A DNA stretch of 64,000 bases from Candidatus Woykebacteria bacterium RBG_13_40_15 (GCA_001816655.1 MHCP01000025.1:78428-142427), one strand, 5' to 3'; numbered from the stretch's first letter, positions 4,006 through 62,195 are shown. The notes: a model not told the origin generated them from the letters alone. Numbers and translations: made by a program.

Positions 4006-4093
4006 AAGACTTAGTAATTCTAACAAATTTACCCTTAATTTCCAAGTTCTAACACTTGTTTTACAAAGGCCAATTAGATATGATTAGCTACGA

Positions 4094-4789
4094 ATGTTTT
4101 CTACACTAATTGCTACCTGGATGACGGTTGTGTATAAACCGTTATATAATTTGGTCGTATTTACGTACAATCTTACCCCCGGTCCTAGTTTTGGATTGAC
4201 AGTTCTTGGATTGGCTTTGCTTATCCGTTTTCTCCTTCTTTATTTTACCCTGCAAGGTTATAAACATGACAAAATGTTAGCAGAAGTAAAACCGCAGATC
4301 GCGAAAATAGAACATGATGATAGGCTCTCCCCAAAGGACAAGCTTCAGAAAATAGGTAATATAACAAAGCCTCTTGGAATAAGCCCATTTGCTAGTTCAG
4401 TTCCTCTTTTTTCCCAACTTCTCTTCCTGGGAGTGCTTTATCAAATAATTCAGGTTGGTCTGACACCATCTGGATTCTCTAACTTATATTCCTTTATAGG
4501 ACACCCAAGTTCTTTCAACACTGATTTTTTGGGGTTCAATATGGCACGGCCGAGCTTAATTCTTGCGATGGTGGCTGTTTTCCTACTATTTCTTGAAAGA
4601 CTTTGGGAGTATACGGAAAAGAAGGACGTATTACGAACTAGTTTTTCTCAAATTTGGGACCCATTGATTTGGCCGGCTGGTAGTCTTATACTTTTATTAG
4701 TGTTACCTAGTGCAAAGGCAATTTTTTTAATAACTTCTGTTGCCTTTTCACTAACAATAAAGTCTATCGTTCATCTTACTAGGCGATAA
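4094..4789 (+). CDS. yidC: YidC/Oxa1-family membrane protein insertase (short form)
   Basis: TM helices plus GLALLIRFLLLYFT...MLAEVKPQIAKIE...KLQKIGNITKPLGISPFASSVPLFSQLLFLGV, matching the conserved YidC core (LxIRxLLxPL, MQxLQPxMKxIQ, PLxGCLPxLxQxP). Confidence 0.7.
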   Translation: MFSTLIATWMTVVYKPLYNLVVFTYNLTPGPSFGLTVLGLALLIRFLLLYFTLQGYKHDKMLAEVKPQIAKIEHDDRLSPKDKLQKIGNITKPLGISPFASSVPLFSQLLFLGVLYQIIQVGLTPSGFSNLYSFIGHPSSFNTDFLGFNMARPSLILAMVAVFLLFLERLWEYTEKKDVLRTSFSQIWDPLIWPAGSLILLLVLPSAKAIFLITSVAFSLTIKSIVHLTRR

Positions 4790-5471: not shown

Positions 5472-6200
5472 TTGCCTGAAACTAAGCATGCGAAAGAATT
5501 AACAGCTCTGGAGCATCGTAGCCTTTTGCTTGCTCTAAGAGAACCCTCTTCCACGTTCAGACAGATCGTGGAGGAAATCGAAGGAGAGCGTTGGTGTCGT
5601 AACGCAGCGAAAGAAGATCTGCTATTGTGGATCAAAGAAGCTCTTCAAGGTGCAGTAGATAAGATCGGTCGTAGATGGGCTAACACACACCCACGTAGCT
5701 TCCCTGGAGAGCTTAAGCAAAGATATTTCGACCTAAACGCATTCCGTGATGCAATGGCTCATATAATCGCTTGTTGGGAGGAAGAGCTCTCTGATAGAAG
5801 GTTGGAAGAGGAGCAGATTACTCATCAAGAGGCGAATCTTCCAGGTGGGTTTGAGCCCCCTCGGTTCGAAGCAGAACCAGTCCCTGTCGAAGAAGAAGAA
5901 GAAGAAGAAGAAAGGATGGTGGTAGAAAGCACTTCGGGTGAGATCACCCATCCCGTAGCATCTGGTCAGACGCAACAAATTACCCCACCTCGGGTCTGCC
6001 CAAGATGCAGGGGTACTATGATCGCCGAGCGTGATTGGTACGGCTCTTACAGAAGCTGCCTCAATTGTGGCAATGTTCAAGAGCTAGATTCTGCCAACAT
6101 TGCTCGTGCGGAAGAAATACTCACTCCAAGTGGAGGTGGAGACAACGAAAGGAAGAGAACGAAAGGCCCAAGCACAAGGCACGGGACCTTAAGGCTTTAG
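5472..6200 (+). CDS. hypothetical acidic protein with C-terminal C4 zinc ribbon, in a higher-GC segment
   Basis: It has CPRCRG...CLNCG and an internal poly-Glu run encoded by (GAA)8. GC is visibly higher than the flanking genes. Confidence 0.35.
   Translation: MPETKHAKELTALEHRSLLLALREPSSTFRQIVEEIEGERWCRNAAKEDLLLWIKEALQGAVDKIGRRWANTHPRSFPGELKQRYFDLNAFRDAMAHIIACWEEELSDRRLEEEQITHQEANLPGGFEPPRFEAEPVPVEEEEEEEERMVVESTSGEITHPVASGQTQQITPPRVCPRCRGTMIAERDWYGSYRSCLNCGNVQELDSANIARAEEILTPSGGGDNERKRTKGPSTRHGTLRL
5888..5911 (+). repeat. (GAA)8 trinucleotide microsatellite inside the CDS (poly-Glu)
   Basis: gaagaagaagaagaagaagaagaa is visible in the sequence. Confidence 0.9.
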
Positions 6201-8156: not shown

Positions 8157-8209
8157 GTAGCAATTGTAACAGAAATAATTATTAATTTCTGGGGGACTGA
8201 GAGTTGTCT

Positions 8210-8271
8210 GGTGTACTAAATTTATCCTGAGCGAAGTCGAAGGAAAGCGAAGGTTTAGAACTTTTTGTGCC
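8210..8271. repeat. Dispersed repeat family, copy A (partial)
   Basis: ggtgtactaaatttatcctgagcgaag...gaaggtttagaactttttgtgcc shares the 3' block (GTAGGAGAAYYTTTTRGTGC-like) and the ttatcctgagc block with copy B. Confidence 0.6.
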
Positions 8272-9383: not shown

Positions 9384-9527
9384 CTCTCACCTCCCTTTCT
9401 TGATTGCTAGATTATATCAAACTATGTCAAAGTTGTTTGCAATAGATTGATGCAGCCTTACACCCCTGGGGTGTTTTAGGTTTACACCTGCGGTCGTTTA
9501 TATTATTTTTGATTTGTAGTGATGATT

Positions 9528-9577
9528 ACAAGGACGGGCCTTGCAAGCTGACAAGCTCATAAATGAAAAAGGAGTAA
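9528..9577. repeat. Repeat family RepA, copy 1
   Basis: acaaggacgggccttgcaagctgacaagctcataaatgaaaaaggagta is about 48 bp and nearly identical to 12549-12596. It contains the perfect hairpin GCAAGG-ACGGG-CCTTGC followed by an AAGGAG tract. Confidence 0.8.
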
Positions 9578-9613
9578 TTCGTGCGTCAACCCCGCGGGTT
9601 GGAAGCTAAATAG

Positions 9614-9640
9614 ACAACGAAGGGGTTGGTTGTTTAAGGG
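9614..9640. repeat. Repeat family RepB, copy 1 (partial)
   Basis: acaacgaaggggttggttgtttaaggg matches the copies at 10751-10790 and 11442-11477. Confidence 0.7.
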
Positions 9641-10750: not shown

Positions 10751-10790
10751 TGTAAATAAACAATGAGGGGGGGGGGTGGTTGTTGATTGA
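10751..10790. repeat. Repeat family RepB, copy 2 (carries a G9 homopolymer)
   Basis: tgtaaataaacaatgagggggggggtggttgttgattga. Confidence 0.7.
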
Positions 10791-11441: not shown

Positions 11442-11477
11442 TGTAAATAAACAATGAGGGGGTTGGTTGTTTAAGGA
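11442..11477. repeat. Repeat family RepB, copy 3
   Basis: tgtaaataaacaatgagggggttggttgtttaagga. Confidence 0.7.
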
Positions 11478-12387: not shown

Positions 12388-12548
12388 GGGATCACTTCCT
12401 TTCGCTACTGACTATTTCCTCTCCCTTTTCTTGAGTTATTTGCTGGATTTAATTGTGCTGTTTTTGATTGTAGCACAAGGATTTATTTTTTGGAAGTTAA
12501 GCGCTTATTGTGAGTTGGTTAGGGGTTGAACTCATAAATTTTATAACT

Positions 12549-12596
12549 GCAAGGACGGGCCTTGCAAGCTGACAAGCTCATAAAAGAAAAGGAGTA
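12549..12596. repeat. Repeat family RepA, copy 2
   Basis: gcaaggacgggccttgcaagctgacaagctcataaaagaaaaggagta. The shared tttttgatt(t)gtag block also appears upstream in both copies. Confidence 0.8.
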
Positions 12597-13198: not shown

Positions 13199-13685
13199 CG
13201 ATCTCTCCTTTCGATTTTTTGCTCTTTTCTAGAACCTGCCTGCTTGTAATTGTTACTAGTTTAAAATTATAGGGTGTAAAAGTCAATAGGTTTAGGGTCT
13301 ATGCTCTAAAATTGAGGCTAAAAAATGCTGTGGTCAATAACAAGGATCGGATTTTCTTCAAAAAAGGAAAAGGCAGACCAAAAAGATGCTTCATGCGAAT
13401 GCATCCGGCCTGCCCATCAGTCCGTGGGTGCTGGCTCTCTCTGTTGCGGTCCCTGATAAAGCTGGACTGCGCCTTATCTTCCACCGCGAGCGGACACCGC
13501 AGGTTTCGCGCGTAGCGGACGATCGCCTCTCTACTTCTAAGTAAGAGGCACAAATCGCTGGGCCCCTAGCAGTTAACTGCATCTGCAGATCGGTAGAGAA
13601 TACCGCTGCGTTGACCCATTTGCGCCGCGTTGTGCGAAGCCAGGCAAGTATAACAAAGAAAAGTAGGAAAGTCAATACTATGGGG

Positions 13686-14011
13686 TGCTGAGGTTGATTG
13701 GTGCACTGTATTAGATTTTACTTTAAGACTTTTTAACTGGCAAAAAGTATAAAAACCAAACAAACCAGAGTAACCAGAGTAAATCCTTCCAGTCTTGGGT
13801 TAAAATTCCTGGGATGCCCAAAAAACCGATAAATCCTAAAAAACCAAGTGTCCAGGTTTTTTTCATAATTTTATTATACACCGAGTTCCGAATCATGAGT
13901 GATGCTTGTCCTGAGCTAGTTCACACTGAGCTGAGTTTATCCTGAGCAGCTCGCAATGAACTCGCTGTGAACTGAAGTGAAGGGAAGTGAAGTAGGAGAA
14001 CTTTTAGTGCC
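13686..14011. repeat. Dispersed repeat family, copy B (long form, about 326 bp)
   Basis: The 5' end tactatggggtgctgaggtt and the 3' end gaagtaggagaacttttagtgcc match copies C and D. The internal cctgagc blocks match copy A. Confidence 0.6.
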
Positions 14012-14019
14012 TATATTTG

Positions 14020-14056
14020 AACAAAAGAAAACGGCGATAAGTTTCCCTATCGCCGC
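14020..14056 (-). terminator. Rho-independent terminator for the minus-strand gene ending at 14077
   Basis: The hairpin GGCGATA-GGGAAAC-TTATCGCC (minus-strand sense) is followed by GTTTTCTTTTGTT. Confidence 0.5.
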
Positions 14057-14076
14057 ATTCAGAATGTAACAATCCC

Positions 14077-14415
14077 TCAGTCCAGAGCCTCCCGATCACT
14101 GATAGAACGAACCAAGGGCCTGCCAAGGCGCGATGCCAGCACCATTTCGTGGGCAACAAAGCTGCCCATCGTCTCGATTAGGTCTATTGCTAATCGGCCT
14201 CTTGCTTCCGGGCTCTTGCATCTGCAGCTACAGATGATTGCTAGAAGAGCCAGATCCTCGGCCATTTGCCCTGCTCTCTCAGGGGCTATCGGTTCACCAT
14301 GGTTCAGAAACGATTCCCTCCGGGCCTCTTCGAGCAGCTCTCTTGCTATCGATATTATCTCCTGCTCGTCTTCACTTCTCTGAGCTTTGAGGCCCCTTCT
14401 GCCTCCATATCCCAT
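14077..14415 (-). CDS. hypothetical protein (112 aa), GC-rich
   Basis: ORF only. It contains a CSCRC cluster. Confidence 0.3.
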   Translation of the reverse strand: MGYGGRRGLKAQRSEDEQEIISIARELLEEARRESFLNHGEPIAPERAGQMAEDLALLAIICSCRCKSPEARGRLAIDLIETMGSFVAHEMVLASRLGRPLVRSISDREALD

Positions 14416-14457
14416 GGCAGTCTCCTTCTTTCTACTGGCGTTAGAATTACAAGTTGT

Positions 14458-14892
14458 TCAGCCCGCAGCAACCTTTGGTTTTACGCGTTTTAGATGAACT
14501 GGATGTATAAACCAGCTCATTGACCGAGCAAGGAAAACACACTTCTCGTCCTCTTTCCCGAAATCTACCAACACGTAGGTGGGGAAGATGGTTTCATTTT
14601 CCCTGACCATCATAGTCCATTCGGAAAACTCTCCGATAAGGCGGACATCATCACCGTGGTAGTACTGATGAAATGGGTCGCCCCAAGACTCCACTCCGTG
14701 GCGGTCGGGTGGTTCACTTGCAGGCTTCAGGCCAGATTTTTGCATGTAGATAGGTAAGCCGTCTGTACGGCCATCCGCATCATATGCCAGGACAGCCACC
14801 AAGCTGCCTTGGTCCGCCTCCACACGAAGGGTGGCATCCTGAAGGCGATCTATGAGCCTGAACAACTCTACTTTCGTGGGTTGATTCCGCAT
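14458..14892 (-). CDS. hypothetical protein (144 aa), GC-rich
   Basis: ORF only. It lies on the same strand as its neighbours with short gaps, which suggests an operon. Confidence 0.35.
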   Translation of the reverse strand: MRNQPTKVELFRLIDRLQDATLRVEADQGSLVAVLAYDADGRTDGLPIYMQKSGLKPASEPPDRHGVESWGDPFHQYYHGDDVRLIGEFSEWTMMVRENETIFPTYVLVDFGKEDEKCVFLARSMSWFIHPVHLKRVKPKVAAG

Positions 14893-14966
14893 TACTTGCT
14901 CCCTCCCTTCCTTGTGTACTATTAGCTGTTTCCCTACGAACTGCTGGCACAGTTTCTATACGCTAG

Positions 14967-15326
14967 CTACCTGACAGTTTTAACTTTCCATATACCAGAT
15001 CCTCTCGATGATGGTGCGACCAACAGGTCCCCACTTATAAGTGGCCTTGGTCGTAACCTGTTTGATATGTGTGTCTTAGGGCAGGCTAATCGAAACGAGT
15101 TCTCATTTCGTCTAGCTCGATATCCACAACCAATGTCAGTGTACACTTCCCGACCATCGGTTATCTCCGCGAGCTTACTAGAAGTAATCTCGGTATCTCT
15201 AGGTATTCTCGCAAGATTGCCGTACGTATAGTCAAAATCCCACTCTGTCAAAAGAATGGTAACCGGGTTTCTACTGGCCGTTTGTTGGGTTTTTTTGGCA
15301 AACCGCCCAAAGATCCTAGATAGCAC
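14967..15326 (-). CDS. hypothetical protein (119 aa), GC-rich
   Basis: ORF only. Confidence 0.3.
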   Translation of the reverse strand: MLSRIFGRFAKKTQQTASRNPVTILLTEWDFDYTYGNLARIPRDTEITSSKLAEITDGREVYTDIGCGYRARRNENSFRLACPKTHISNRLRPRPLISGDLLVAPSSRGSGIWKVKTVR

Positions 15327-15430
15327 AATCGTCTCCTTTCGAGTGTTAGAAATCTTTCTCCCAAAGCCGTCTAGGAACCTATTTAACTGTTAACGCAGAT
15401 GATTATACCAGAAAGGAATATAAAATCAAG

Positions 15431-15511
15431 TACTATGGGGTGCTAGGGTCGTCTAGTGTACGACGTTACTTGTCCTTCGTAGCTTTAGCGAAGTAGGAGA
15501 ATCTTTTGTGC
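15431..15511. repeat. Dispersed repeat family, copy C (compact complete form, 81 bp)
   Basis: tactatggggtgctagggtcgtctagtgtacgacgttacttgtccttcgtagctttagcgaagtaggagaatcttttgtgc. Confidence 0.7.
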
Positions 15512-15526
15512 AACAGCGCGACTGTT

Positions 15527-15555
15527 GACAGCTGTACACAAAAATGTAATACTGG
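15527..15555 (+). promoter_or_regulatory. putative sigma70-type promoter of the phd–relE operon
   Basis: TTGACA, then a 16-nt spacer, then TAATAC immediately upstream of the antitoxin start. Confidence 0.3.
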
Positions 15556-15559
15556 CACT

Positions 15560-15832
15560 ATGTCTACAAAAACATTACCTGTTACCGAAGCTAGGAAGAA
15601 TTTAACAGATTTAGTGGGCAAGGCCTCAAGTCAATTGGATGAATATGTTATTACCGTGAAAGGCAAACCAAAAGCAGTTCTGATAAGCGCTGTTGAATTT
15701 GAAGGATGGAAAGAAACAAATGAAATTTTATCCAATCCAAAACTCGTCAAAGCTATACATGAAGGTGAGGAAGACATAAAAGCTGGTAGGATTGTAACCC
15801 TCGAAGGCCTCAAAAAAGAGTTTCATGTATAA
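15560..15832 (+). CDS. Phd/YefM-family antitoxin
   Basis: MSTKTLPVTEARKNLTDLVGKAS...ITVKGKPKAVLISAVEFEGWKET has the canonical Phd/YefM N-terminus. Its stop overlaps the toxin start. Confidence 0.75.
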   Translation: MSTKTLPVTEARKNLTDLVGKASSQLDEYVITVKGKPKAVLISAVEFEGWKETNEILSNPKLVKAIHEGEEDIKAGRIVTLEGLKKEFHV

Positions 15833-16082
15833 ACTAATTCTTTCTGCAAGAACAAGAAAAGAATTAAAAAAAGTTCCCAAACAACATAGAGAAGCAATAC
15901 TTCTAGCATTAGATGAAGTTAAAAACGATCCTTTTGAGGGAAAACCTTTATCCCGAGAACTTATCGGTAGATTTAGCTACCGAGTTGGGGTCTATAGAGT
16001 TATTTACCAAGTGAATAAACAAAACCAAACTATTTATATTTCAACTGCCGCTCATAGAGGAAAGGTTTATAAAAGAAAGTAG
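15825..16082 (+). CDS. RelE/ParE-family toxin
   Basis: GKPLSRELIGRFSYRVGVYRVIYQVNKQNQTIYISTAAHRGKVY has the R(V)GDYR(V)IY...V..IGHR pattern. Confidence 0.8.
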   Translation: MYKLILSARTRKELKKVPKQHREAILLALDEVKNDPFEGKPLSRELIGRFSYRVGVYRVIYQVNKQNQTIYISTAAHRGKVYKRK

Positions 16083-16096
16083 TTAAAATCATTGGT

Positions 16097-16130
16097 TTCG
16101 TCTAATGTACGACGTTAGAATCTTTTGTGC
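16097..16130. repeat. Dispersed repeat family, copy D (partial)
   Basis: ttcgtctaatgtacgacgttagaatcttttgtgc reproduces the gtctaRtgtacgacgtta block and the atcttttgtgc 3' end of copy C. Copies C and D directly flank the phd–relE cassette. Confidence 0.7.
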
Positions 16131-16236
16131 GTATATTTAAAAATAGCTACTTAGCTTATCAGAATCTTAATTAATGAGTGGCTCTCTCCTTTCTCCATGA
16201 GAGTTCCACTCGGTAACAGGCTGATGCTTTGTCTGC

Positions 16237-16695
16237 TTAATCGGTTTGGGTAGTGCCCCCTAGATCCACTACTCGGACGAAACCAGTTTCGGAGAACAGT
16301 GTGAGGGGTAGGAGGCTATCGAACGATACCACCTTGAAACCCTCTCGAACCCCGATTGCCTCACCGCCCCAGAGACTAAGACGGACCCGGATCATGATCC
16401 AGCAGTATTCGAAAAGGAACCTTGTCTTTATCTCGAACTCTACTATCCGATCCGCTAACTCCATCTTAGCTTCATACGTGTTCGCTGCCTTGAGGGAACG
16501 TTCCGCCTCGGCGGCCTTCTCAAGGAAGAGAGAAGCGGCAGAAACCACTTCTATCTCATCCTCGATCAGATCGCCGACAATCCTTTCGCCTTGGCGAACG
16601 GGTGTTAGGATCGTGAGAGGCCTCCTTAGTTCCCTTCTCGGCAAGGGAACTGTGAATGGCAGTCTCTTTAGCCAACTACCTCTTCTTGTAGGCAT
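16237..16695 (-). CDS. hypothetical protein (152 aa), GC-rich
   Basis: ORF only. Confidence 0.3.
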   Translation of the reverse strand: MPTRRGSWLKRLPFTVPLPRRELRRPLTILTPVRQGERIVGDLIEDEIEVVSAASLFLEKAAEAERSLKAANTYEAKMELADRIVEFEIKTRFLFEYCWIMIRVRLSLWGGEAIGVREGFKVVSFDSLLPLTLFSETGFVRVVDLGGTTQTD

Positions 16696-16871
16696 AGAAA
16701 ACTCCTTCCTTCTTGCTCGCTCCTTTATTGTTATGGGATTATACCATAGTTATGGAATTTTTACTTTGTGTATTGGCCCAAAAATACTAGAATGACAATA
16801 ATAAAAGAAGAATATGTTAAAATGGTTGTTGTAACAACATAAATTGAAGATAAACACACCTTAAAAAGTGC

Positions 16872-16948
16872 TGGGGTGGGTGAGGGGGTTCGAACCCCCG
16901 ACCTTCCCCTCCACAGGGGGACGCTCTACCGATTGAGCTACACCCACC
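16872..16948 (-). tRNA. tRNA-His (anticodon GTG) with encoded G-1
   Basis: G-1 plus acceptor GTGGGTG/CACCCAC, anticodon stem TCCCC/GGGGA with loop CTGTGGA, T arm GGGGG-TTCGAAC-CCCCT, discriminator C, CCA encoded. Confidence 0.85.
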
Positions 16949-16951
16949 AAG

Positions 16952-17419
16952 TTATCCAATAAATCCGTGTTTAAGATAATGGCAGTTTCTGCAAAGTAAG
17001 GCTAAATTAGAAACATCGTTATTCTTTCTATCTCCATCTCTATGATGAACTACCAAGACTCGCTCGTCAGAAAAATTACAACATTCACATTTTAACACTT
17101 TTGAATGGTTAAATAAAACTTTCCTGTAAGAACTAACTCCTGTCCGCCAATTGGGATTATTTATGCTGAATCTTAAATTTTTATTTGCCCAGCTGGCATG
17201 GCAAGAATAGCTACAAAAGAATAAATTACTTTTAGATTTCTTGAATTGAGCTGGGGTTCTGTAAAGTGCATTACCACAATGTGCGCATTTTACAGTCCTT
17301 CCTTTTTTCTGGGCTTCAAACTTACATTTATCCGAGCAAAATTTACCCCACCCAATTTTAATATGTCTCGGCTTCGCATAAAATTTTCCGCTGCAAATTT
17401 TACAATTTAACCAAGGCAT
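16952..17419 (-). CDS. HNH endonuclease with N-terminal Cys-rich zinc-finger region
   Basis: HHRDGDRKNNDVSNLALLCRNCHYLKH is an HNH motif. Multiple CxxC pairs lie upstream. Confidence 0.75.
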   Translation of the reverse strand: MPWLNCKICSGKFYAKPRHIKIGWGKFCSDKCKFEAQKKGRTVKCAHCGNALYRTPAQFKKSKSNLFFCSYSCHASWANKNLRFSINNPNWRTGVSSYRKVLFNHSKVLKCECCNFSDERVLVVHHRDGDRKNNDVSNLALLCRNCHYLKHGFIG

Positions 17420-19817: not shown

Positions 19818-21113
19818 ATGCCAATGTCAATCGACTTCCAGAGCCGCCTGTTCCCCCATCTTTCCAAAATCGTTGATCACTATGGAACCCCTTTCCATAT
19901 CTACGATGTGAGGGGTCTTCTGGAAAATGGAACAGACCTAACACGCAAGTTCATGGGCCAATTCCAATTCAAGGAGTTCTTCGCTGTCAAAGCGAACCCC
20001 AACCCGGAGGTTCTGAAGCTGATGCGGGGAATGGGTTTTGGCTTCGACTGCAGCTCTATTCCAGAGCTTGTCCTTGCCACTCTGGTCGGTGCAAAACCAG
20101 GCGATGTCATGTTTACCTCAAATAACACAAGTACGGCCGAATTTCAGGCAGCACTTGACATAGGCTGCATTTTCAACCTGGACGACATTACCATGATTGA
20201 GAATGTCCCAGAACCCTTTCCTAGACTCATTTGTTTCCGTTACAACCCCGGGGAACGGCGAAGTGGAACCAGTTTCATCGGCGTACCAGTCGAGGCAAAG
20301 TACGGAGTCCGTCACGATCAGCTCATCAACGCATACCGCATGGCAATGGCTCGAGGTGCGAACCGGTTTGGGCTACACACTATGATCGCCTCCAACACCT
20401 TGGACTGTAGCTATATGATAGAGACAGTCCGAATGCTGCTTGAGGTGGTCGAGGAAGTCTCGGCAGAACTCGGGATCAAATTCAAATTCATCAACATGGG
20501 TGGTGGAATTGGAATACCCTACCACCCAAATGATGCACCGTTCGACCTTTTCCAACTGGCCCACGAAGCCCGATACTTGCTACACCGCTTCAAGGAAAGA
20601 AACGGTTACGTTCCGGCGCTTTACATGGAATCGGGTCGAGCAATGACCGGTCCCTTCGGAATACTGGTCACGCGAGTCCTCAACCGAATGAGTAAGCACC
20701 GGGAATATGTAGGCGTTGACGCCTGCATGTCCTCCCTAATGCGACCTGGAATGTACCGGAATAGTCAGATAGCAGAAGGTGCGGGTTACCACCATATCAC
20801 AGTACTAAATAGGTACGGTCACCCCAAAAGTGGGCCTACTGAAGTAGTGGATATTGTCGGTTCGCTCTGCGAGAACTGCGACAAGTTCGCCGTCCGAAGA
20901 GAGCTCCCTATGGCAGAGGTGGACGACCTAGTTGTCATCCACGACACAGGCGCTCACGGTCACGCCATGGGGTTCATCTACAACGGACGGCTTCGTCCCG
21001 CGGAGCTTATGCTTTGCGAGGACGGTAGTGTTCGACTTATCCGAAGAGCAGAAACCATCGAGGACTATCTTCGAACAGTCGCAGATCTCGAACCAAACGT
21101 TATGCAGCTGTAG
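19818..21113 (+). CDS. Fold-type III PLP decarboxylase of the Orn/DAP/Arg family (diaminopimelate decarboxylase-like)
   Basis: FAVKANPNPEVLKLM is the PLP-Lys motif. NMGGGIGIPY is the Gly-rich loop, ESGRAMTGPFG is present, and GSLCENCDKF is the CE..D active-site motif. GC is higher than the core genes. Confidence 0.65.
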   Translation: MPMSIDFQSRLFPHLSKIVDHYGTPFHIYDVRGLLENGTDLTRKFMGQFQFKEFFAVKANPNPEVLKLMRGMGFGFDCSSIPELVLATLVGAKPGDVMFTSNNTSTAEFQAALDIGCIFNLDDITMIENVPEPFPRLICFRYNPGERRSGTSFIGVPVEAKYGVRHDQLINAYRMAMARGANRFGLHTMIASNTLDCSYMIETVRMLLEVVEEVSAELGIKFKFINMGGGIGIPYHPNDAPFDLFQLAHEARYLLHRFKERNGYVPALYMESGRAMTGPFGILVTRVLNRMSKHREYVGVDACMSSLMRPGMYRNSQIAEGAGYHHITVLNRYGHPKSGPTEVVDIVGSLCENCDKFAVRRELPMAEVDDLVVIHDTGAHGHAMGFIYNGRLRPAELMLCEDGSVRLIRRAETIEDYLRTVADLEPNVMQL

Positions 21114-21149
21114 AATCAACCAAACTCAAACGAAAGGGAAGGTGATATT

Positions 21150-22346
21150 GTGCCCAACCGATGGCTTCCAGAAGGTGAAGAGAACCTTTTCCAGAGGATC
21201 AAAGCTCAGCGTGAGGCAGCAGCAGCCAAGGGCATCAAGATCATTGACCTGTCGATTGGCCAACCGCAAGGCCCAGCACTCCTAAGTGCTAGAAAAGAAG
21301 CCTCTCGCGCTGTGTTAAGCAGCAAGGAAGCAATGCACAGCTATCAAGACAATGGGTGTTTGCCCTTACCCGATTTCGCTTCACAGTTCATACAATCCCA
21401 TATGCACCGGGGGCTCGACGGTTTCGATATAGCGTTCCTTCCGATACCCGGCATCAAGCCAGTCCTCTCGATGATACCGCTTGCATGCGGTGCCGAGAAG
21501 AATAGTGCACTCATCGTGGAGACCATGACGAACCCGGGCTACCCAACGCCATTGGATGTCTGCAAGCACCTACGCTTGCGAGGAATTCACGAGCTACCAC
21601 TCACGCCCGAAAACGGATTCAGCTTTGCACTAAGCGACTCCTGGGGGACTCGCGGCTTGATGATGCTCAACTACCCACACAACCCATCAGGCCAAATCGC
21701 CATCAAGAACTGGTGGTGGGCCCTCTGCGAGTACTGCGTTACCCACGGGATAAGGCTCTTCAACGACGCTGCTTACGCAGCCCTCTGGCACACCGAAGAG
21801 TGCTGCACCCTGACAGAAGTAGCTGTCAGCTTTCCCGATCTTTCCTGGGTTGAAGCATTTTCCGCGTCAAAACTCATCGGCAACGGCACCGGCTGGAGGA
21901 TTGGTGCTCTCGTCGGCTCGTCCGACTTTGTCGCCGATATAGCGGCCATCAAGGGAAAGATGGATAGCGGATTCGCCGCTCCGCTAGCGGCAGGAGTTCT
22001 TGCGGCAACGGAGAGTGACCGCGACGGAATAAACACCTATCGGGAAATGTACCGCCAGCGATCAGAAATGCTCACTAGGTTGCTCTCTAACCGCAACGTG
22101 AGGATTGCTGTGCCTCCAAAGGCTGGATTCTTCACGCTCTGGAAGGTCCCAGCGCAAGCCTTCGGAGAAGAGGTCCAGGACGCCCCACACTTCAACTCAA
22201 CCATGATCGAGCGGACTGGTGTCGTTGGTGTGCCCTTCGACTCAAAGCAAGGAGCTTACATTCGATACGCGGTCTGCGGCGACATCGGAGCAATGGAAAG
22301 AGATCTAGAAGCGGCCTTTGATCAAGCGGCTGTTTCGTACAATTAG
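21150..22346 (+). CDS. Class I/II PLP aminotransferase (DapL/AspC-like)
   Basis: NYPHNPSG matches the N.P.NP.G motif and SASKLIGNGTGWRIGALVG matches S.SK......G.R.G. GC-rich; co-oriented and 36 nt downstream of the decarboxylase. Confidence 0.6.
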   Translation: MPNRWLPEGEENLFQRIKAQREAAAAKGIKIIDLSIGQPQGPALLSARKEASRAVLSSKEAMHSYQDNGCLPLPDFASQFIQSHMHRGLDGFDIAFLPIPGIKPVLSMIPLACGAEKNSALIVETMTNPGYPTPLDVCKHLRLRGIHELPLTPENGFSFALSDSWGTRGLMMLNYPHNPSGQIAIKNWWWALCEYCVTHGIRLFNDAAYAALWHTEECCTLTEVAVSFPDLSWVEAFSASKLIGNGTGWRIGALVGSSDFVADIAAIKGKMDSGFAAPLAAGVLAATESDRDGINTYREMYRQRSEMLTRLLSNRNVRIAVPPKAGFFTLWKVPAQAFGEEVQDAPHFNSTMIERTGVVGVPFDSKQGAYIRYAVCGDIGAMERDLEAAFDQAAVSYN

Positions 22347-34618: not shown

Positions 34619-34695
34619 AATCAAGACCCTAATCGAGTCTTGTTGTTTCACAATCAAGACCCTAATCGAGTCTTGTTGTTCAAATAATCAAGAGG
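34619..34695. repeat. Tandem 34-bp repeat (2.3 copies), each with an internal dyad
   Basis: aatcaagaccctaatcgagtcttgttgtt occurs twice, followed by a partial aatcaagagg. The dyad is CAAGAC...GTCTTG followed by TTGTT. It lies between the uvrA 3' end and the histidine-kinase 5' start. Confidence 0.7.
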
Positions 34696-42346: not shown

Positions 42347-43047
42347 GGAAATAGTTTAATGAAAAAAGGAGAACCGCCAACTGAAGTCACCAGCTGGCGG
42401 CGTTTCGGCGGAAATGTTTGGTCCCCAACCTTACCGAACTTAGGTAACTACTCTAAGCTGGCGGGCTAGTTTCCTTCTTATCCGCCGTCTCTTCCGTATA
42501 TCCCATTGGTCGATGGTAATCTTCCTTCTCACGTACGCTCAATCCTCTGGCGGTAGTAAGTCGGCGAAAGTCCTTGGTCGAGACATACACCTGAGACGTA
42601 GATGTGAACGCATTTCTCTCTCCTCCCGTTTTCACAAGACTGGATATTAATATAGTACACTCAACCCTAAACTACAAGACGGCTGGGAACCGGTGTAAAC
42701 CGACTCCCAGTTATTTTGGGCTAGGGGATACTCTTATGGCTCACACCCAAACGATAGTAGGATGGCTGTCACCTTGGAAGATGAGTTCAACCCCGATTGG
42801 AATGTTGTCATTGCAGCAGAACCTTGGCTCAATGCATGGTGGAAGCCTACCCGCCTCCTGCTGCGCGCGAAGTCCCATCATGAAAGATGTCACTGTACCC
42901 GAACGCCTCAGCAGCTCACGTATGATTTCTTCTCTCGTTTCCGGCACGATTCAACCTCCTTCAGTCGAAAGGTTTATGACCCTGAACAGCTGTACTGACT
43001 CACAGTTATTTCGCAGCAGTCAGTTCGTTTCTCAGCTAGTAACGAGA

Positions 43048-43542
43048 CTAAGGTTCCCACAACCTCTTTACGTCCCAGACAGTAAACGTCTGGTTAATGA
43101 CTCCAACGTAGACCGTGGCACCCACTGGTTTTTTACCCTTACAGTGGACTTTTCTGATCTCGTAACCAGCAGGTCTGCCAGCGAAGGTTCCAAGAGCAAG
43201 TATTTTTTCAGCCTTGCTTCGGAACTCTTCCTCCGTATCGGAAACAAATAGCTGCTCCGCTAGCCTAGTTCTCAGGTCCTGAATGCTAGGCAGTCTTCTC
43301 TGGAGCTCCTCCTTCCCAATAAGGGTGCCGTGGGGCGGAAGTGAGTCAATATTGGTGTCCGAAACCACAAGGCCCTCAGGAACTCGCGATATTTTCACAC
43401 ACTTCGAGAGACCCCCAGTAGCCTGAATAGTAAGCGTGATGGTCATCCCAAGCCCCATTCTGAGTAAAGCCTCATAGAGGTAAACGCCCAGCATGGTAAT
43501 GAGTGTTTCCTCAACGTCTCTTTCTCTAAGTCCCTTCCTCAT
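43048..43542 (-). CDS. hypothetical protein (164 aa) in a GC-rich segment, divergent from lexA
   Basis: ORF only. Confidence 0.3.
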   Translation of the reverse strand: MRKGLRERDVEETLITMLGVYLYEALLRMGLGMTITLTIQATGGLSKCVKISRVPEGLVVSDTNIDSLPPHGTLIGKEELQRRLPSIQDLRTRLAEQLFVSDTEEEFRSKAEKILALGTFAGRPAGYEIRKVHCKGKKPVGATVYVGVINQTFTVWDVKRLWEP

Positions 43543-49628: not shown

Positions 49629-49657
49629 CTAACTCTTCCTTCGTTAATAACCCATAG

Positions 49658-50170
49658 TTGACTTTGGAGCACTTTTTTGCTATATTTTCACTGCCAACGA
49701 TTCAGGCGTTCAAAAGACGTACTGTTCTCGTTAGGCAACAAAAGGAGGAAGGGGCAATGCCCGGAGCAGTCAGACACACATTGTGGGCGCTTCAAGAGGT
49801 GATCGAAGCCCAATCGGCAAGGGAGTGGTTCCCCCTCTCGGAGGGAGACCAACTAGGAGACATGGTGGACGGACTGAAGCCATTTCTAGACGACCTAAGC
49901 GGAAAGATCGCAGGCATAAACCTGAAAGGTGTTCCTCTCAAAACAGACGAGGGGTGCACTTACCTTCTCTCAGAAGAAGGGAAATTCTACTGTGTGCGCA
50001 CCGGATCAACCGAAGAGGTAAGCTGGAGAGAAATCGCTGAAGAAGTCGGGGTACTCGAAGTCGGACGAGCACTCGCTAATGCGTTGATTTCGAGGTTAGA
50101 ACAGTACCGTGAGCTTCACAACCTGTGGGAACAAACCTTCAACAAAGTGAAGCCGCTAATCGAGAGTTAA
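49658..50170 (+). CDS. hypothetical protein in a GC-rich segment
   Basis: ORF only. The likely start is the internal MPGAVRHT. Confidence 0.3.
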   Translation: MTLEHFFAIFSLPTIQAFKRRTVLVRQQKEEGAMPGAVRHTLWALQEVIEAQSAREWFPLSEGDQLGDMVDGLKPFLDDLSGKIAGINLKGVPLKTDEGCTYLLSEEGKFYCVRTGSTEEVSWREIAEEVGVLEVGRALANALISRLEQYRELHNLWEQTFNKVKPLIES

Positions 50171-50435
50171 AACTCTCTTCCTGTCCCTTTCTGTCCCGTT
50201 TCCTTTCTTCTAAGTAAGGAAGGTTAAGGAGAAAGAAGATCCTTATTAGGATCTAGTTGACAGGCAGCAGAATCATTATAGGGAGATAATAAAGCTCCTG
50301 GAGTTATCACTCCCTGTTGCCTTAACCTAAGAAACTCATTTTAAAAAATGGGTGGTTTAGGAGGAAAAACGAGTCGTCCATCCTTCGTCAAAACTACGGA
50401 GGATAAAAAGGGCTCGTTTTTCTTTTGGTTGAGAT

Positions 50436-57044: not shown

Positions 57045-58112
57045 TTAACTCAACCCTCCTATCGCAACTCCCCGGAAGCTTATCCGATAACCCTCACTAA
57101 CAGCTTTGAGGAACGGAAGGTTTTCTGGCGTAACGGCCGCCATCAAACCCCCATTGACAATTTGGCCTGGGGTAAACGCAGCGATTGTTCCCTGCCGACC
57201 TCGTTGGGCGAAGGTACTCACTGCAAGTCTCATCGCTCGGGCATCACGACCTATGTACATTAGCTGGGAACGGTCGCATACCCTACCCTTGCCATTGACC
57301 ATTACCGACAGGCCCTGGTCGGCGAGAAGCTCAACACACTTCACATCGGTCTGACTGTCCCCAACATAGACCGCCCTTTCTCTTGGTATATCGCAATTGC
57401 GAAGATGCCTCTCCAACGCATCCCTCTTCTGCGCCTGGCCTACTGGATGAACGGCTGTCAGGAAGTGATGACCAACCTGCGTACCATATACTTCCCGCCA
57501 AACGATTTCCTTCAGCCGCTCCGCGTACTGACGACTGTCCTCATACACGCACCCTTCCTTATCGAATTCGACGAGCGGCATACTAGCGACTTCCTTCATC
57601 AGGGCCAAAAGGTGTTTCTGATGCCCAATTGGCACGGACACCCTCTCAAAGTCACCAACAACCGTACAGGTAGCACGGTCGAAGGGAAAGCCGACGGCGT
57701 CGCAGAAGGCTCTGACGAAGAAGTCGTAGCTTGTTGAGATCAACCCCGTTTTGTAAGCTCCGTTGAGGAATCGAAGAACTTCCCCAGTGTGTGGAACAAC
57801 TCGCAGACTTCGGCGTGAGAAACCGTAGAGCCAACTGTCCCCAACACCTGCTACCGCCACCATTGCCCTTAAGAATGGAAGGATTACCTTCAGGGTATGG
57901 CCCGCAGAGTAGGTTCGGTCTATATCAGCGACAAGTGCGAAATCCCCCCAAAGATCATCGATGTTACTGATTGCCTCAAAGAACTTCCGCCCAACCGCTG
58001 CCCCCAATCCACAGAGCCTTGCCAAGGCCACTGTCAGTTCGAAGGCGTTATCGTTTCGAACTAGAGGTCCTTCGACATCAAGATCAACAGCTATTTTATT
58101 TGTAGGCTGCAT
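57045..58112 (-). CDS. hypothetical protein with HAD-like motifs, GC-rich segment
   Basis: VDLDVEGPL fits motif I (DxDx[TV]) and YVGDSQTDV fits motif IV (GDxxxD). The other motifs are uncertain. Confidence 0.3.
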   Translation of the reverse strand: MQPTNKIAVDLDVEGPLVRNDNAFELTVALARLCGLGAAVGRKFFEAISNIDDLWGDFALVADIDRTYSAGHTLKVILPFLRAMVAVAGVGDSWLYGFSRRSLRVVPHTGEVLRFLNGAYKTGLISTSYDFFVRAFCDAVGFPFDRATCTVVGDFERVSVPIGHQKHLLALMKEVASMPLVEFDKEGCVYEDSRQYAERLKEIVWREVYGTQVGHHFLTAVHPVGQAQKRDALERHLRNCDIPRERAVYVGDSQTDVKCVELLADQGLSVMVNGKGRVCDRSQLMYIGRDARAMRLAVSTFAQRGRQGTIAAFTPGQIVNGGLMAAVTPENLPFLKAVSEGYRISFRGVAIGGLS

Positions 58113-61442: not shown

Positions 61443-62195
61443 ATGGAGAGAGTCGTTATCAACGTCGATGCTATCAAGCAAAGGATCTCCAGATTTGAGC
61501 AACTCGCCCAACAAGCCACCACTAGTGGCGATAGAGACAAAGCATGGCGGCTTAAAAACCAAATTGAGACCTATAGACGAGTGCTGCGCCTACTGGACGA
61601 ACTCAAAAAGGCGGGGCTTGCGCAGCAGTTTGACCAATCATCAATACCACTGCGCAGCCTCTCAAACGCTAAATCAACCTCCTTCCGGCAAAAACCGGAA
61701 CGAAAGAAAACGCATCTCAGGCGAAGACGGAAAACGACTATAAGAATATCCAGTCTCATACTCGGCGAACGCCTACAGGTAATGGAGGCTGCACTTTTTG
61801 GCGAGTACAGAAGCTACCAAGAGCTGGGATCGGTCTTTTGGCCCAACGAACTGGAGTCAAAAGGGCTAAAGTACGTCGCAGGTAAGGCTTCCCAGCTAAT
61901 ACAGCAAGGCTTCTGGAGAATGAGCAGAGTTCTGGAAAACGGAGAGAAGGGATTAGCTCGTCTTGATCTACCAGAGATCGAAAAAGCCTTTTACCAAAGG
62001 GTTCTTCAGGAATACGGACCTGATGCCATCAAGGTAATTTCCAGGGGGCTTGGTATACGAGACCTGGACGGAAAAAGAAAAAGCAGCGATAGCCTACGGC
62101 GACTTCGAGAGGATATTGCCTCAGGTAAAGGGCTGAAGGTTGGAGATCGAATTTCAATTGCGAGCCAGAAGGGAGAGGAGCCGCCGCCTTGGTAG
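61443..62195 (+). CDS. hypothetical protein (250 aa), GC-rich
   Basis: ORF only. A basic patch RRRRK sits mid-protein. Confidence 0.3.
   Translation: MERVVINVDAIKQRISRFEQLAQQATTSGDRDKAWRLKNQIETYRRVLRLLDELKKAGLAQQFDQSSIPLRSLSNAKSTSFRQKPERKKTHLRRRRKTTIRISSLILGERLQVMEAALFGEYRSYQELGSVFWPNELESKGLKYVAGKASQLIQQGFWRMSRVLENGEKGLARLDLPEIEKAFYQRVLQEYGPDAIKVISRGLGIRDLDGKRKSSDSLRRLREDIASGKGLKVGDRISIASQKGEEPPPW

Follow-up and report, generated by a model that had tools for sequence, protein, structure and literature searches.

In a 64,000-nt stretch of the genome of Candidatus Woykebacteria bacterium RBG_13_40_15 (the window; GC = 0.415, low-GC DNA of a candidate-phyla-radiation (CPR) bacterium), we found that four dispersed repeats are copies of one junction site, which we named F1. 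The repeats lie in an island, an 8.7-kb GC mosaic that extends from a rhodanese gene to the 3' end of a tRNA-His gene. We propose, with a probability of about 0.6, that F1 is a double-stranded att-type recombination site joining integrase-less cassettes accreted at the tRNA-His 3' end. All four copies (A to D, Table 1) are on the plus strand, in the same sense as the TGG (CCA) edge of the tRNA gene whose 3' side the island adjoins, and they are confined to 8.19-16.14 kb. At every copy the coding strand changes and the GC content moves between 0.35 and 0.50; the copy either has a minus-strand promoter to its left and a minus-strand terminator to its right, or adjoins a plus-strand toxin-antitoxin module.

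Four exact matches to the 3' block AGAAYYTTTWGTGC are present in the window, all on the plus strand (8257-8270, 13997-14010, 15498-15511, and 16117-16130), while about 0.003 per strand are expected by chance. The 14-mer TACTATGGGGTGCT is exact in copies B and C (13676-13689 and 15431-15444), the 20-mer TCGTCTARTGTACGACGTTA is common to C (15449-15468) and D (16098-16117) and had zero matches in any shuffle, and the 3' extension GTGCSTATATTTRAA is common to B and D. Pairwise local alignments beat all 200 shuffles (A-B3, 36 versus a shuffle maximum of 24; B5-C, 35 versus 23; B3-C, 33 versus 22; C-D, 35 versus 26). Pattern and profile searches found no copy in the remaining ~55 kb of the window, and only a handful are present in 1.68 Mb of CPR loci. 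These results agree with a first-pass annotation of the window, which had listed four copies with a 5' block common to B and C, a 3' block common to all, and a block common to C and D. It had also described C and D as directly flanking the phd-relE cassette, the body of which indeed fills the interval between them, and copy A as overlapping a 5' extension of the rhodanese open reading frame (ORF); this extension is spurious, and the likely real start of the gene, on the minus strand, is ATG 8156. The limits of two copies needed revision: A, previously started at 8210, has an extra degenerate 5' module and runs from 8190 to 8270, and B, previously started at 13686, begins at 13676 and is of the long form, with 196 nt of low-GC DNA inserted in it.

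From the alignment of the copies of the window and its relatives, the compact form of F1 (about 40-55 bp) reads TGG-N4-CG-TCTAGTG-N6-GTTAGAA-N2-TTTT-RTGC(-GTATATTTA). An extra module, CTTGTCCTGAGC...GAAGG, lies between ACGACG and TTAGAA in A, B, and C, and in copies L3 and L4 of the related locus L099, described below. The likeness to a tRNA is limited to the first 6-15 nt, which imitate a CCA end and trailer in either a His-type form, (GTGC)TGGGGT, or an Asn-type form, CATTGGCTCC. Because His and Asn left edges stand on a common right part, the copies have the look of hybrid junctions produced by site-specific recombination.

A metagenome scan with the F1 3' block returned 22 matches, of which 21 lay in coding sequence and were due to chance. 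The one real match, L099, comes from the 146.6-kb contig Ga0315273_10000015 and contains at least five F1 copies, lying between a 269-aa gene, phd-parE, a purD gene with a GC content of 0.49, and high-GC ORFs. Its phd-parE (1639-2311) is 94.7% identical to positions 15442-16114 of the window, and the flanks are otherwise different. Copies L2 and L3 bracket phd-parE, L1 is an empty compact site, and the left flanks are ~88% identical by eye. Since these left flanks are paralogous, L1 and the L2/L3 pair provide an empty-versus-filled comparison within one contig. L3 is also the uninterrupted long form with which we compared the split copy B: the right part of B is 75% identical to L099 2308-2433, and the insert of B occupies the place that the phd-parE cassette has relative to the hairpin in C and D.

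A search with Phd, followed by the retrieval of the encoding contigs, added three more contexts of phd-parE. This brings the genomic contexts of the cassette to five, in which either F1 or a real tRNA gene forms its boundaries, with an F1-like site upstream in 5/5 and downstream in 4/5 (all but L107). In the window, the three-ORF cassette and F1-C are on the left, and F1-D, a 152-aa gene, and tRNA-His are on the right of relE. In L099, the 269-aa gene and L2 are followed by the cassette, L3, and purD; in L104-106, a MarR operon and an F1-like site are on the left, and TGGCTCCGAGTAATTGG and a flavodoxin gene on the right of relE; in L127-129, a 204-aa gene and F1 are on the left, and F1, an 89-aa gene, and tRNA-Gly on the right of relE. 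Lastly, in L107-116 a 72-aa gene and an F1-like site precede the cassette, and a real tRNA-Asn(gtt) follows 11 nt after the stop codon. The edge beside the relE stop is always TGGCTCC, or TGGTTTC in the window. In L107, the real tRNA-Asn 3' end occupies the usual position of F1 on the right of relE, and a short direct repeat of that end, AAATGGCTC, is present upstream of phd. The tRNA-Gly gene is intact in L127, and L128 keeps its first 18 nt (TGGAGCGCGAGACGGGAT) and then switches to a different unit, possibly a GIY-YIG-type gene on the reading of its translation; the comparison of the two loci thus indicates accretion leaving a partial tRNA copy in this group. A distant phd-parE in the P0042 context, a tightly packed stable locus without F1, was uninformative.

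A further tRNA ladder is found in L012, a sister Woykebacteria locus retrieved via DHODH and not via phd. The scan of genome contigs with DHODH (best identity 63%, in CPR and DPANN genomes, among them Curtissbacteria and Daviesbacteria) gave no close relative and no gain in synteny, and it did yield this locus. An nhmmer profile of compact F1 copies identified two copies in it (E = 3e-8 and 0.02). Read in F1 orientation, L012 presents the real tRNA-Asn end TGGCTCCCCGGGTAGGATTCGAACC, a 15-nt copy of it, a 9-nt copy, and two F1 sites beginning TGGCTCCG. Overall, the copies of the tRNA-Asn 3' end measure 15, 9, 7, and 7 nt, the F1 sites stand at the far end of the ladder, and the whole series has one orientation, with minus-sense genes in between. 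In this locus, a repeat family, ATCGCTAAAGCGC.CTG.GACCACTTCGTGGGCTA, fills an insert of ~110 nt between the real tRNA-Asn and the 15-nt partial copy (350-270, minus view), and it is found in tandem in L099 (6480-6760).

The relation of F1 to tRNA-His itself differs from what the first-pass annotation had proposed, namely that the 5' block, together with the preceding aaGTaCT, resembles the tRNA-His 3' end. Local alignments of tRNA-His and its trailer to A, B5, C, and D did not exceed shuffled sequence (p = 0.35, 0.066, 0.16, and 0.91, respectively), and the register was wrong, as the preceding letters belong to TACTATGGG, a cassette arm. The block AAAGTCAAGTACTATGGG stands before the 15-nt tRNA-Asn copy of L012 and, in the window, before the core of B and C, which makes TACTATGGGG a promoter-side arm of high-GC cassettes and not tRNA-His sequence. 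In the register GTGCT[A/G][G/A]GGT, C and B match GTGCTGGGGT (16868-16877) at 9/10, and this register seems convincing only through copy L4 of L099, which starts AAAAAAGTGCTGGGGT and is identical to window 16863-16877 at 15/15 positions (0/5000 shuffles reached 15; the maximum was 11). For L1 and L2 of L099, tRNA-His is the best of the 13 tRNAs of the window, with the match exactly at its 3' terminus. As regards the wider idea of an att ladder left by tandem accretion at a tRNA, att-type junctions at a tRNA 3' end are backed by the relatives, where F1 bounds cassettes, some of them at tRNA ends (L099, L104, L107, L127, and L012). The rest of that idea needs to be recast: F1 is a conserved site of its own and not a series of decayed tRNA-His copies, the units are cassettes of 0.2-2.5 kb and not islands, no integrase is recognisable in the island or in the 64-kb window, and D has an Asn-type edge in an array anchored at tRNA-His.

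Two 10-nt matches to the CCA end and trailer of tRNA-Asn1 (38589 onward) were also noted, one in copy B (ACCAATCAAC, 13700-13709) and one in the second copy of another repeat family, F2 (CAATCAACAA, 10775-10784). After multiple testing they are probably a coincidence, though both fall at the same spot.

The units between the F1 copies are organised as cassettes. Low-GC units (0.34-0.37) are on the plus strand and comprise a ParE-like remnant, a Fic gene, a two-ORF module, and phd-parE/relE, and the units with a GC content of 0.50-0.52 are on the minus strand. The cassettes are self-contained, since their own promoters and terminators flank the F1 sites. The promoter-side arm AAAGTCAATACTATGGG recurs in L012, L099, L107, and L010, and at 49650-49665 of the window. 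The proteins of the high-GC units gave no convincing match in Pfam, PHROG, or NCBIfam; the 144-aa ORF had one weak match to a PHROG with function unknown (E = 9e-4). Homologue searches with the 144-aa and 152-aa proteins returned the same strain or the source record only, the 152-aa protein (16237-16695) being 100% identical to a Candidatus Woykebacteria bacterium RBG_13_40_15 protein. On these searches, the high-GC genes of the island appear to be ORFans. Junction B and the three-ORF unit are also present in an independent assembly from the same Rifle sample, so the GC mosaic is real and does not come from a chimeric contig, a warning that can be drawn from this locus.

The mechanism that we propose involves a recombinase, most plausibly of the tyrosine type and encoded elsewhere, which would act on the F1 of a circular cassette; its target would be either the CCA end and trailer of the tRNA gene or an F1 already in the array. 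Every joining event would leave a hybrid site, the left 6-15 nt of which would derive from the resident junction (His-type AAAAAGTGCTGGGGT or Asn-type CATTGGCTCC) and the remainder, CGTCTAGTG-N6-GTTAGAA-N2-TTTTRTGC with or without the internal module, from the incoming cassette. The cassettes are autonomous transcription units, and several of them, being toxin-antitoxin modules, would stabilise the array. Copies distant from the tRNA would decay, which could account for A as the most diverged. We infer the recombinase and its class, the circular intermediate, the position of the crossover, and the order of insertion; the data place the crossover only within TGG...ACGACG.

Several results weigh against this mechanism. 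No integrase or recombinase domain was found in the window (Pfam on 30 ORFs, the remaining long ORFs by eye), among the precomputed Pfam annotations of the L104, L107, and L127 flanks, or in the flanks of L099, read as ORF translations without Pfam annotation. As reported above, the similarity of F1 to tRNA-His within the window is not above chance, and the rest of the site (CGTCTAGTG...GTTAGAA..TTTTRTGC) is not tRNA-like by Rfam. The hairpin of F1 is absent from A, B, and the distant copies, and no compensatory changes are seen. The F1 sites of L099, L104, and L073 have no tRNA in the examined sequence. Furthermore, the family is rare: of the 22 matches of the metagenome scan a single one was real, and viral contigs yielded no real match, as three F1/F3 patterns gave nothing there or one chance match inside a coding region.

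A side observation concerns L073, a CPR contig without a tRNA nearby. A direct repeat of ~45 nt, GTTTCGAAYMTTACCATTTTTCYACTCTGCCCAAAAT (18380-18335 and 17345-17300, minus view), flanks in this locus a 1-kb unit formed by an F1-like site and a high-GC ORF.

The main rival explanation is that F1 is a passive portable homology, a conserved promoter/terminator spacer travelling with the cassettes, and that these are exchanged by ordinary homologous recombination following the uptake of DNA, without any dedicated recombinase. It would account for the window and L099, where the repeats around phd-parE share 20-45 nt, and it is coherent with the failure to find a recombinase, with the constant position of F1 between terminator and promoter, and with the conservation of the adjacent promoter arm across genomes. 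However, about 6-12 nt is all that the flanking repeats have in common in L104 and L107, less than RecA-type exchange requires, and in L107 one repeat partner is a tRNA gene. The ladder of L012 and the partial tRNA copy of L128 are, moreover, a signature of site-specific integration. On balance, we consider homologous exchange unlikely as the explanation of these arrays.

It is very unlikely that F1 is a small non-autonomous mobile repeat, of the miniature inverted-repeat transposable element (MITE) or repetitive extragenic palindromic (REP) type, whose repeated insertions in intergenic DNA had nothing to do with the cassettes. As could be expected of such an element, F1 forms a short, dispersed family with optional internal modules, and one internal motif, CCTGAGCGAAGTCGAAGG, is also spread over several further CPR loci. 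Nevertheless, no inverted-repeat pair was found at the F1 ends and no short duplications in its flanks, all copies have one orientation, and the remaining ~55 kb of the window contain none. The copies fall on cassette boundaries and, in relatives, on tRNA ends.

As for the motif itself, CCTGAGCGAAGTCGAAGG (a TCCT...AGGA hairpin, window 8226-8243) is internal to F1-A and to L4 of L099, and further sites are in L002, L006, L022, L075, L099 (3916), L107 (17965), and L128 (~4036-4095). The L107 site lies between tRNA-Ser and a gene with a precomputed GIY-YIG Pfam match, and the related sequence in L128 is beside the partial tRNA-Gly and a gene read by eye as GIY-YIG-like.

The structural analyses bear on two further explanations. 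Rfam at gathering score identified tRNAs only, and relaxed scans of the island, L099, L104, and L127 gave chance-level matches located off F1. The only fold that F1 forms is a 5-bp hairpin, GTCGT/ACGAC, and none of 12 single-stranded folds (six copies, both strands) was better than shuffles (z from -1.35 to +0.87). We also rejected the possibility that F1 is a tRNA pseudogene or a minus-strand cloverleaf: neither ARAGORN nor Rfam gives a match, and the TTCTAAC-like motif is 21 nt away from the CCA end, not 16.

A role of F1 as a cis-regulatory element or small RNA of co-regulated operons (operator, insulator, or 5'/3' untranslated region) is highly improbable. The site is immediately upstream of the promoters of minus-strand units and contains an AGGAG-like stretch; on the other hand, that stretch and the start of phd are 60 nt apart, D and L1 have gene ends and not promoters before them, the site is duplicated around an inserted cassette, and it has no Rfam match, no stable fold, and no covariation. 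Close to refuted is the hypothesis of an integrase-less integron cluster (CALIN) in which F1 acts as a folded single-stranded attC: although the array is made of small cassettes rich in toxin-antitoxin and ORFan genes, GTTAGAA fits the R' core GTTRRRY at 6/7, and GTCTAAT/GTCTAGT resembles R'', the imperfect palindrome that the first-pass annotation had suggested looking for is absent by the folds above, the distance from the R''-like to the R'-like motif is only 21 nt in a compact site of about 40 nt, and the cassettes have their own promoters and both orientations, with no IntI found.

Returning to accretion by site-specific recombination, the F1 locus appears to match the logic of tandem tRNA-gene integration. 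In the tycheposon arrays of Prochlorococcus, partial tRNA copies lie between the elements integrated in tandem at tRNAs (bioRxiv 10.1101/2020.12.28.424599), and tandem site-specific integration at tRNAs is also seen in additive flexible genomic islands of Alteromonas (PMC3698932). As in these systems, the F1 island adjoins a tRNA 3' end, its direct repeats have the same orientation with edges that may copy the tRNA terminus, partial tRNA copies lie between elements in L012 and L128, and the cassette content varies among relatives. Unlike in these systems, the F1 units have no integrase, replication, or hallmark gene and measure 0.2-2.5 kb, the joint is mostly non-tRNA and conserved across genomes, His-type and Asn-type edges are found in one array, and F1 also occurs without a tRNA in the examined sequence.

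Three other known systems offer partial parallels. Cis-mobilizable elements (CIMEs), which take part in accretion-mobilization in the integrative and conjugative element (ICE) families of streptococci, are integrase-less, att-flanked, and arranged in tandem arrays at a fixed site, with the recombinase presumably acting in trans. F1 cassettes share these features of lacking an integrase, being flanked by att-type sites, and standing in tandem at a fixed site. However, CIMEs derive from and adjoin integrase-bearing ICEs with the same att site, whereas no integrase-bearing partner is visible at the F1 array, and F1 cassettes are much smaller. With integrons and CALINs, the F1 array has in common small cassettes, many of them toxin-antitoxin or ORFan, one conserved site per joint, the core-like motif GTTAGAA, and the fact that new cassettes can enter at a site inside the array; it differs in that neither IntI nor an attC fold was found, the cassettes carry their own promoters and lie in both orientations, and the anchor is a tRNA end and not attI. 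The pdif modules of Acinetobacter plasmids are Xer-dependent and are bounded by 28-bp XerC/XerD sites (11-6-11) of alternating orientation. The F1 modules are likewise small, often toxin-antitoxin, bounded by a short site, and without a recombinase of their own, but the F1 copies are chromosomal direct repeats, and inspection of the F1 consensus found no 11-6-11 pattern or dif-like half-sites.

CPR bacteria have very small genomes and, to our knowledge, little has been described on how they acquire genes. The locus described here suggests a repeatable route, in which small self-contained cassettes stack at tRNA 3' ends via a conserved short site, with no recombinase aboard, and the same toxin-antitoxin cassette was delivered to at least five genomic contexts. 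A bolder possibility, which we hold as doubtful, is that F1 arrays are a CPR cassette-capture system, integron-like in its working and built differently: the tRNA CCA end would serve as attI, the ~40-bp double-stranded F1 as attC, the cassettes would be self-promoted, and a recombinase encoded elsewhere would move them between arrays and genomes. If so, it would explain how tiny genomes gather 50%-GC ORFans and toxin-antitoxin modules. The literature searched contained no account of such cassette arrays in CPR/Patescibacteria. Should a dedicated recombinase be found, the arrays would be a cassette platform comparable to integrons in a large section of the bacterial tree that is uncultured, and the F1 consensus could serve in practice to locate flexible gene pools in metagenome-assembled genomes. 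If none is found, the locus would still be a clean example of an additive tRNA-anchored island.

Table 1. Features of the island of the window and of the adjacent tRNA-His gene (positions counted from the first nucleotide of the window).
Feature	Position	Strand	Remarks
F1 copy A	8190..8270	+	most diverged; TGGGGGACTGAGAGTTGTCTGGTGTAC, then TTTATCCTGAGCGAAGTCGAAGGAAAGCGAAGG, then TTTAGAACTTTTTGTGC; just upstream of the rhodanese promoter/start
F3 (CAAGGACGGGCCTTGCAAGCTGACAAGCTCATAAA)	9522-9569, 12543-12590	+	right of minus-strand promoters
F2 (TAAATARACAAYGARGGGGTTGGTTGTTTAAGG; TAAATAAACAATGAGGGGGTTGGTTGTTTAAGG)	9607-9639, 10753-10785, 11444-11476	+	bracket the Fic gene and the two-ORF module
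Sigma-70-like promoter TTGACT-17-TATACT	13647..13675	-	directly left of F1-B; contains arm AAAGTCAATACTATGGG
F1 copy B, left part	13676..13708	+	arm TACTATGGG, core GTGCTGAGGT, degenerate hairpin region TGATTGGTGCACTG
Low-GC (0.34) mini-cassette splitting copy B	13709..13904	-	196 nt; 47/57-aa hydrophobic ORF 13723-13896
F1 copy B, right part	13905..14022	+	long CTTGTCCTGAGC...GAAGG module, 3' block GGAGAACTTTTAGTGC, extension CTATATTTGAAC
Intrinsic-terminator-like hairpin and T run, end of three-ORF cassette	14031..14056	-	directly right of F1-B
High-GC (0.50) three-ORF cassette	14077..15326	-	ORFs of 112, 144, and 119 aa, apparent ORFans
Sigma-70-like promoter TTGATT-16-TATAAT with TG, three-ORF cassette	15402..15429	-	directly left of F1-C
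F1 copy C	15431..15511	+	arm TACTATGGG, core GTGCTAGGGT (15440-15449), hairpin CGTCTAGTGTACGACG, 30-nt internal module, GAATCTTTTGTGC
phd-parE/relE cassette body	15512..16092	+	promoter 15525-15553, phd 15560-15832, parE/relE 15825-16082, tail TAGTTAAAATCAT
F1 copy D	16093..16139	+	compact, Asn-type edge TGGTTTCGTCTAATGTACGACGTTAGAATCTTTTGTGC, then GTATATTTA; nhmmer E = 1e-8
152-aa apparent ORFan, GC 0.52	16237..16695	-	between F1-D and tRNA-His
Anchor core AAAAAGTGCTGGGGT	16863..16877	+	tRNA-His trailer, CCA end, discriminator, two acceptor bases
tRNA-His(gtg)	16872..16947	-	3' end points into the island

Two other families of junction repeats, F2 and F3, are present in the island (Table 1). 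The two-ORF module bracketed by F2 is HicB/HicA-like by eye and has no Pfam match. A run of 10 nt in the third F2 copy, AACCCCCTCA, is also found at the tRNA-His junction of T-arm and acceptor (window 16881-16890), and F2 may be another att type with a T-loop crossover. The F3 copy at 12543-12590 abuts a strong minus-strand terminator (12628->12589). That terminator is 94.6% identical in L099 (5286-5338), where a partial F1 (L5) replaces the F3 part.

In the insert of copy B, the 47-aa hydrophobic ORF, which is read from the second ATG, has a TATAAT-like hexamer just upstream of that codon. It could encode a membrane peptide or represent a type I toxin-like mini-cassette.

Outside the island, a solitary high-GC ORFan (ATG 49758 to stop 50170, plus strand) is located between an rsmI-like gene and acs. 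Its region (49640-50400) has the promoter arm CCCATAGTTGACTTT of the high-GC cassettes of the island, and the ORFan resembles a single cassette that was inserted with no tRNA nearby. Other high-GC patches of the window are at 1676-2056, 5472-6200, 19818-22346, 42604-43542, 57045-58112, and 61443-62195. They include a pair of pyridoxal phosphate (PLP)-decarboxylase-like and aminotransferase-like genes (translations read by eye; GC 0.51-0.57) beside tRNA-Gly/Arg, as well as several ORFans, and foreign-looking genes are common in the genome. On the side of tRNA-His opposite to the island, an HNH endonuclease gene (16952-17419, minus strand) ends 5 nt upstream of the tRNA 5' end. Lastly, a 29-nt sequence, AATCAAGACCCTAATCGAGTCTTGTTGTT, is present twice, in exact copies 33 nt apart (window 34619-34680), between a histidine kinase-like gene and uvrA.

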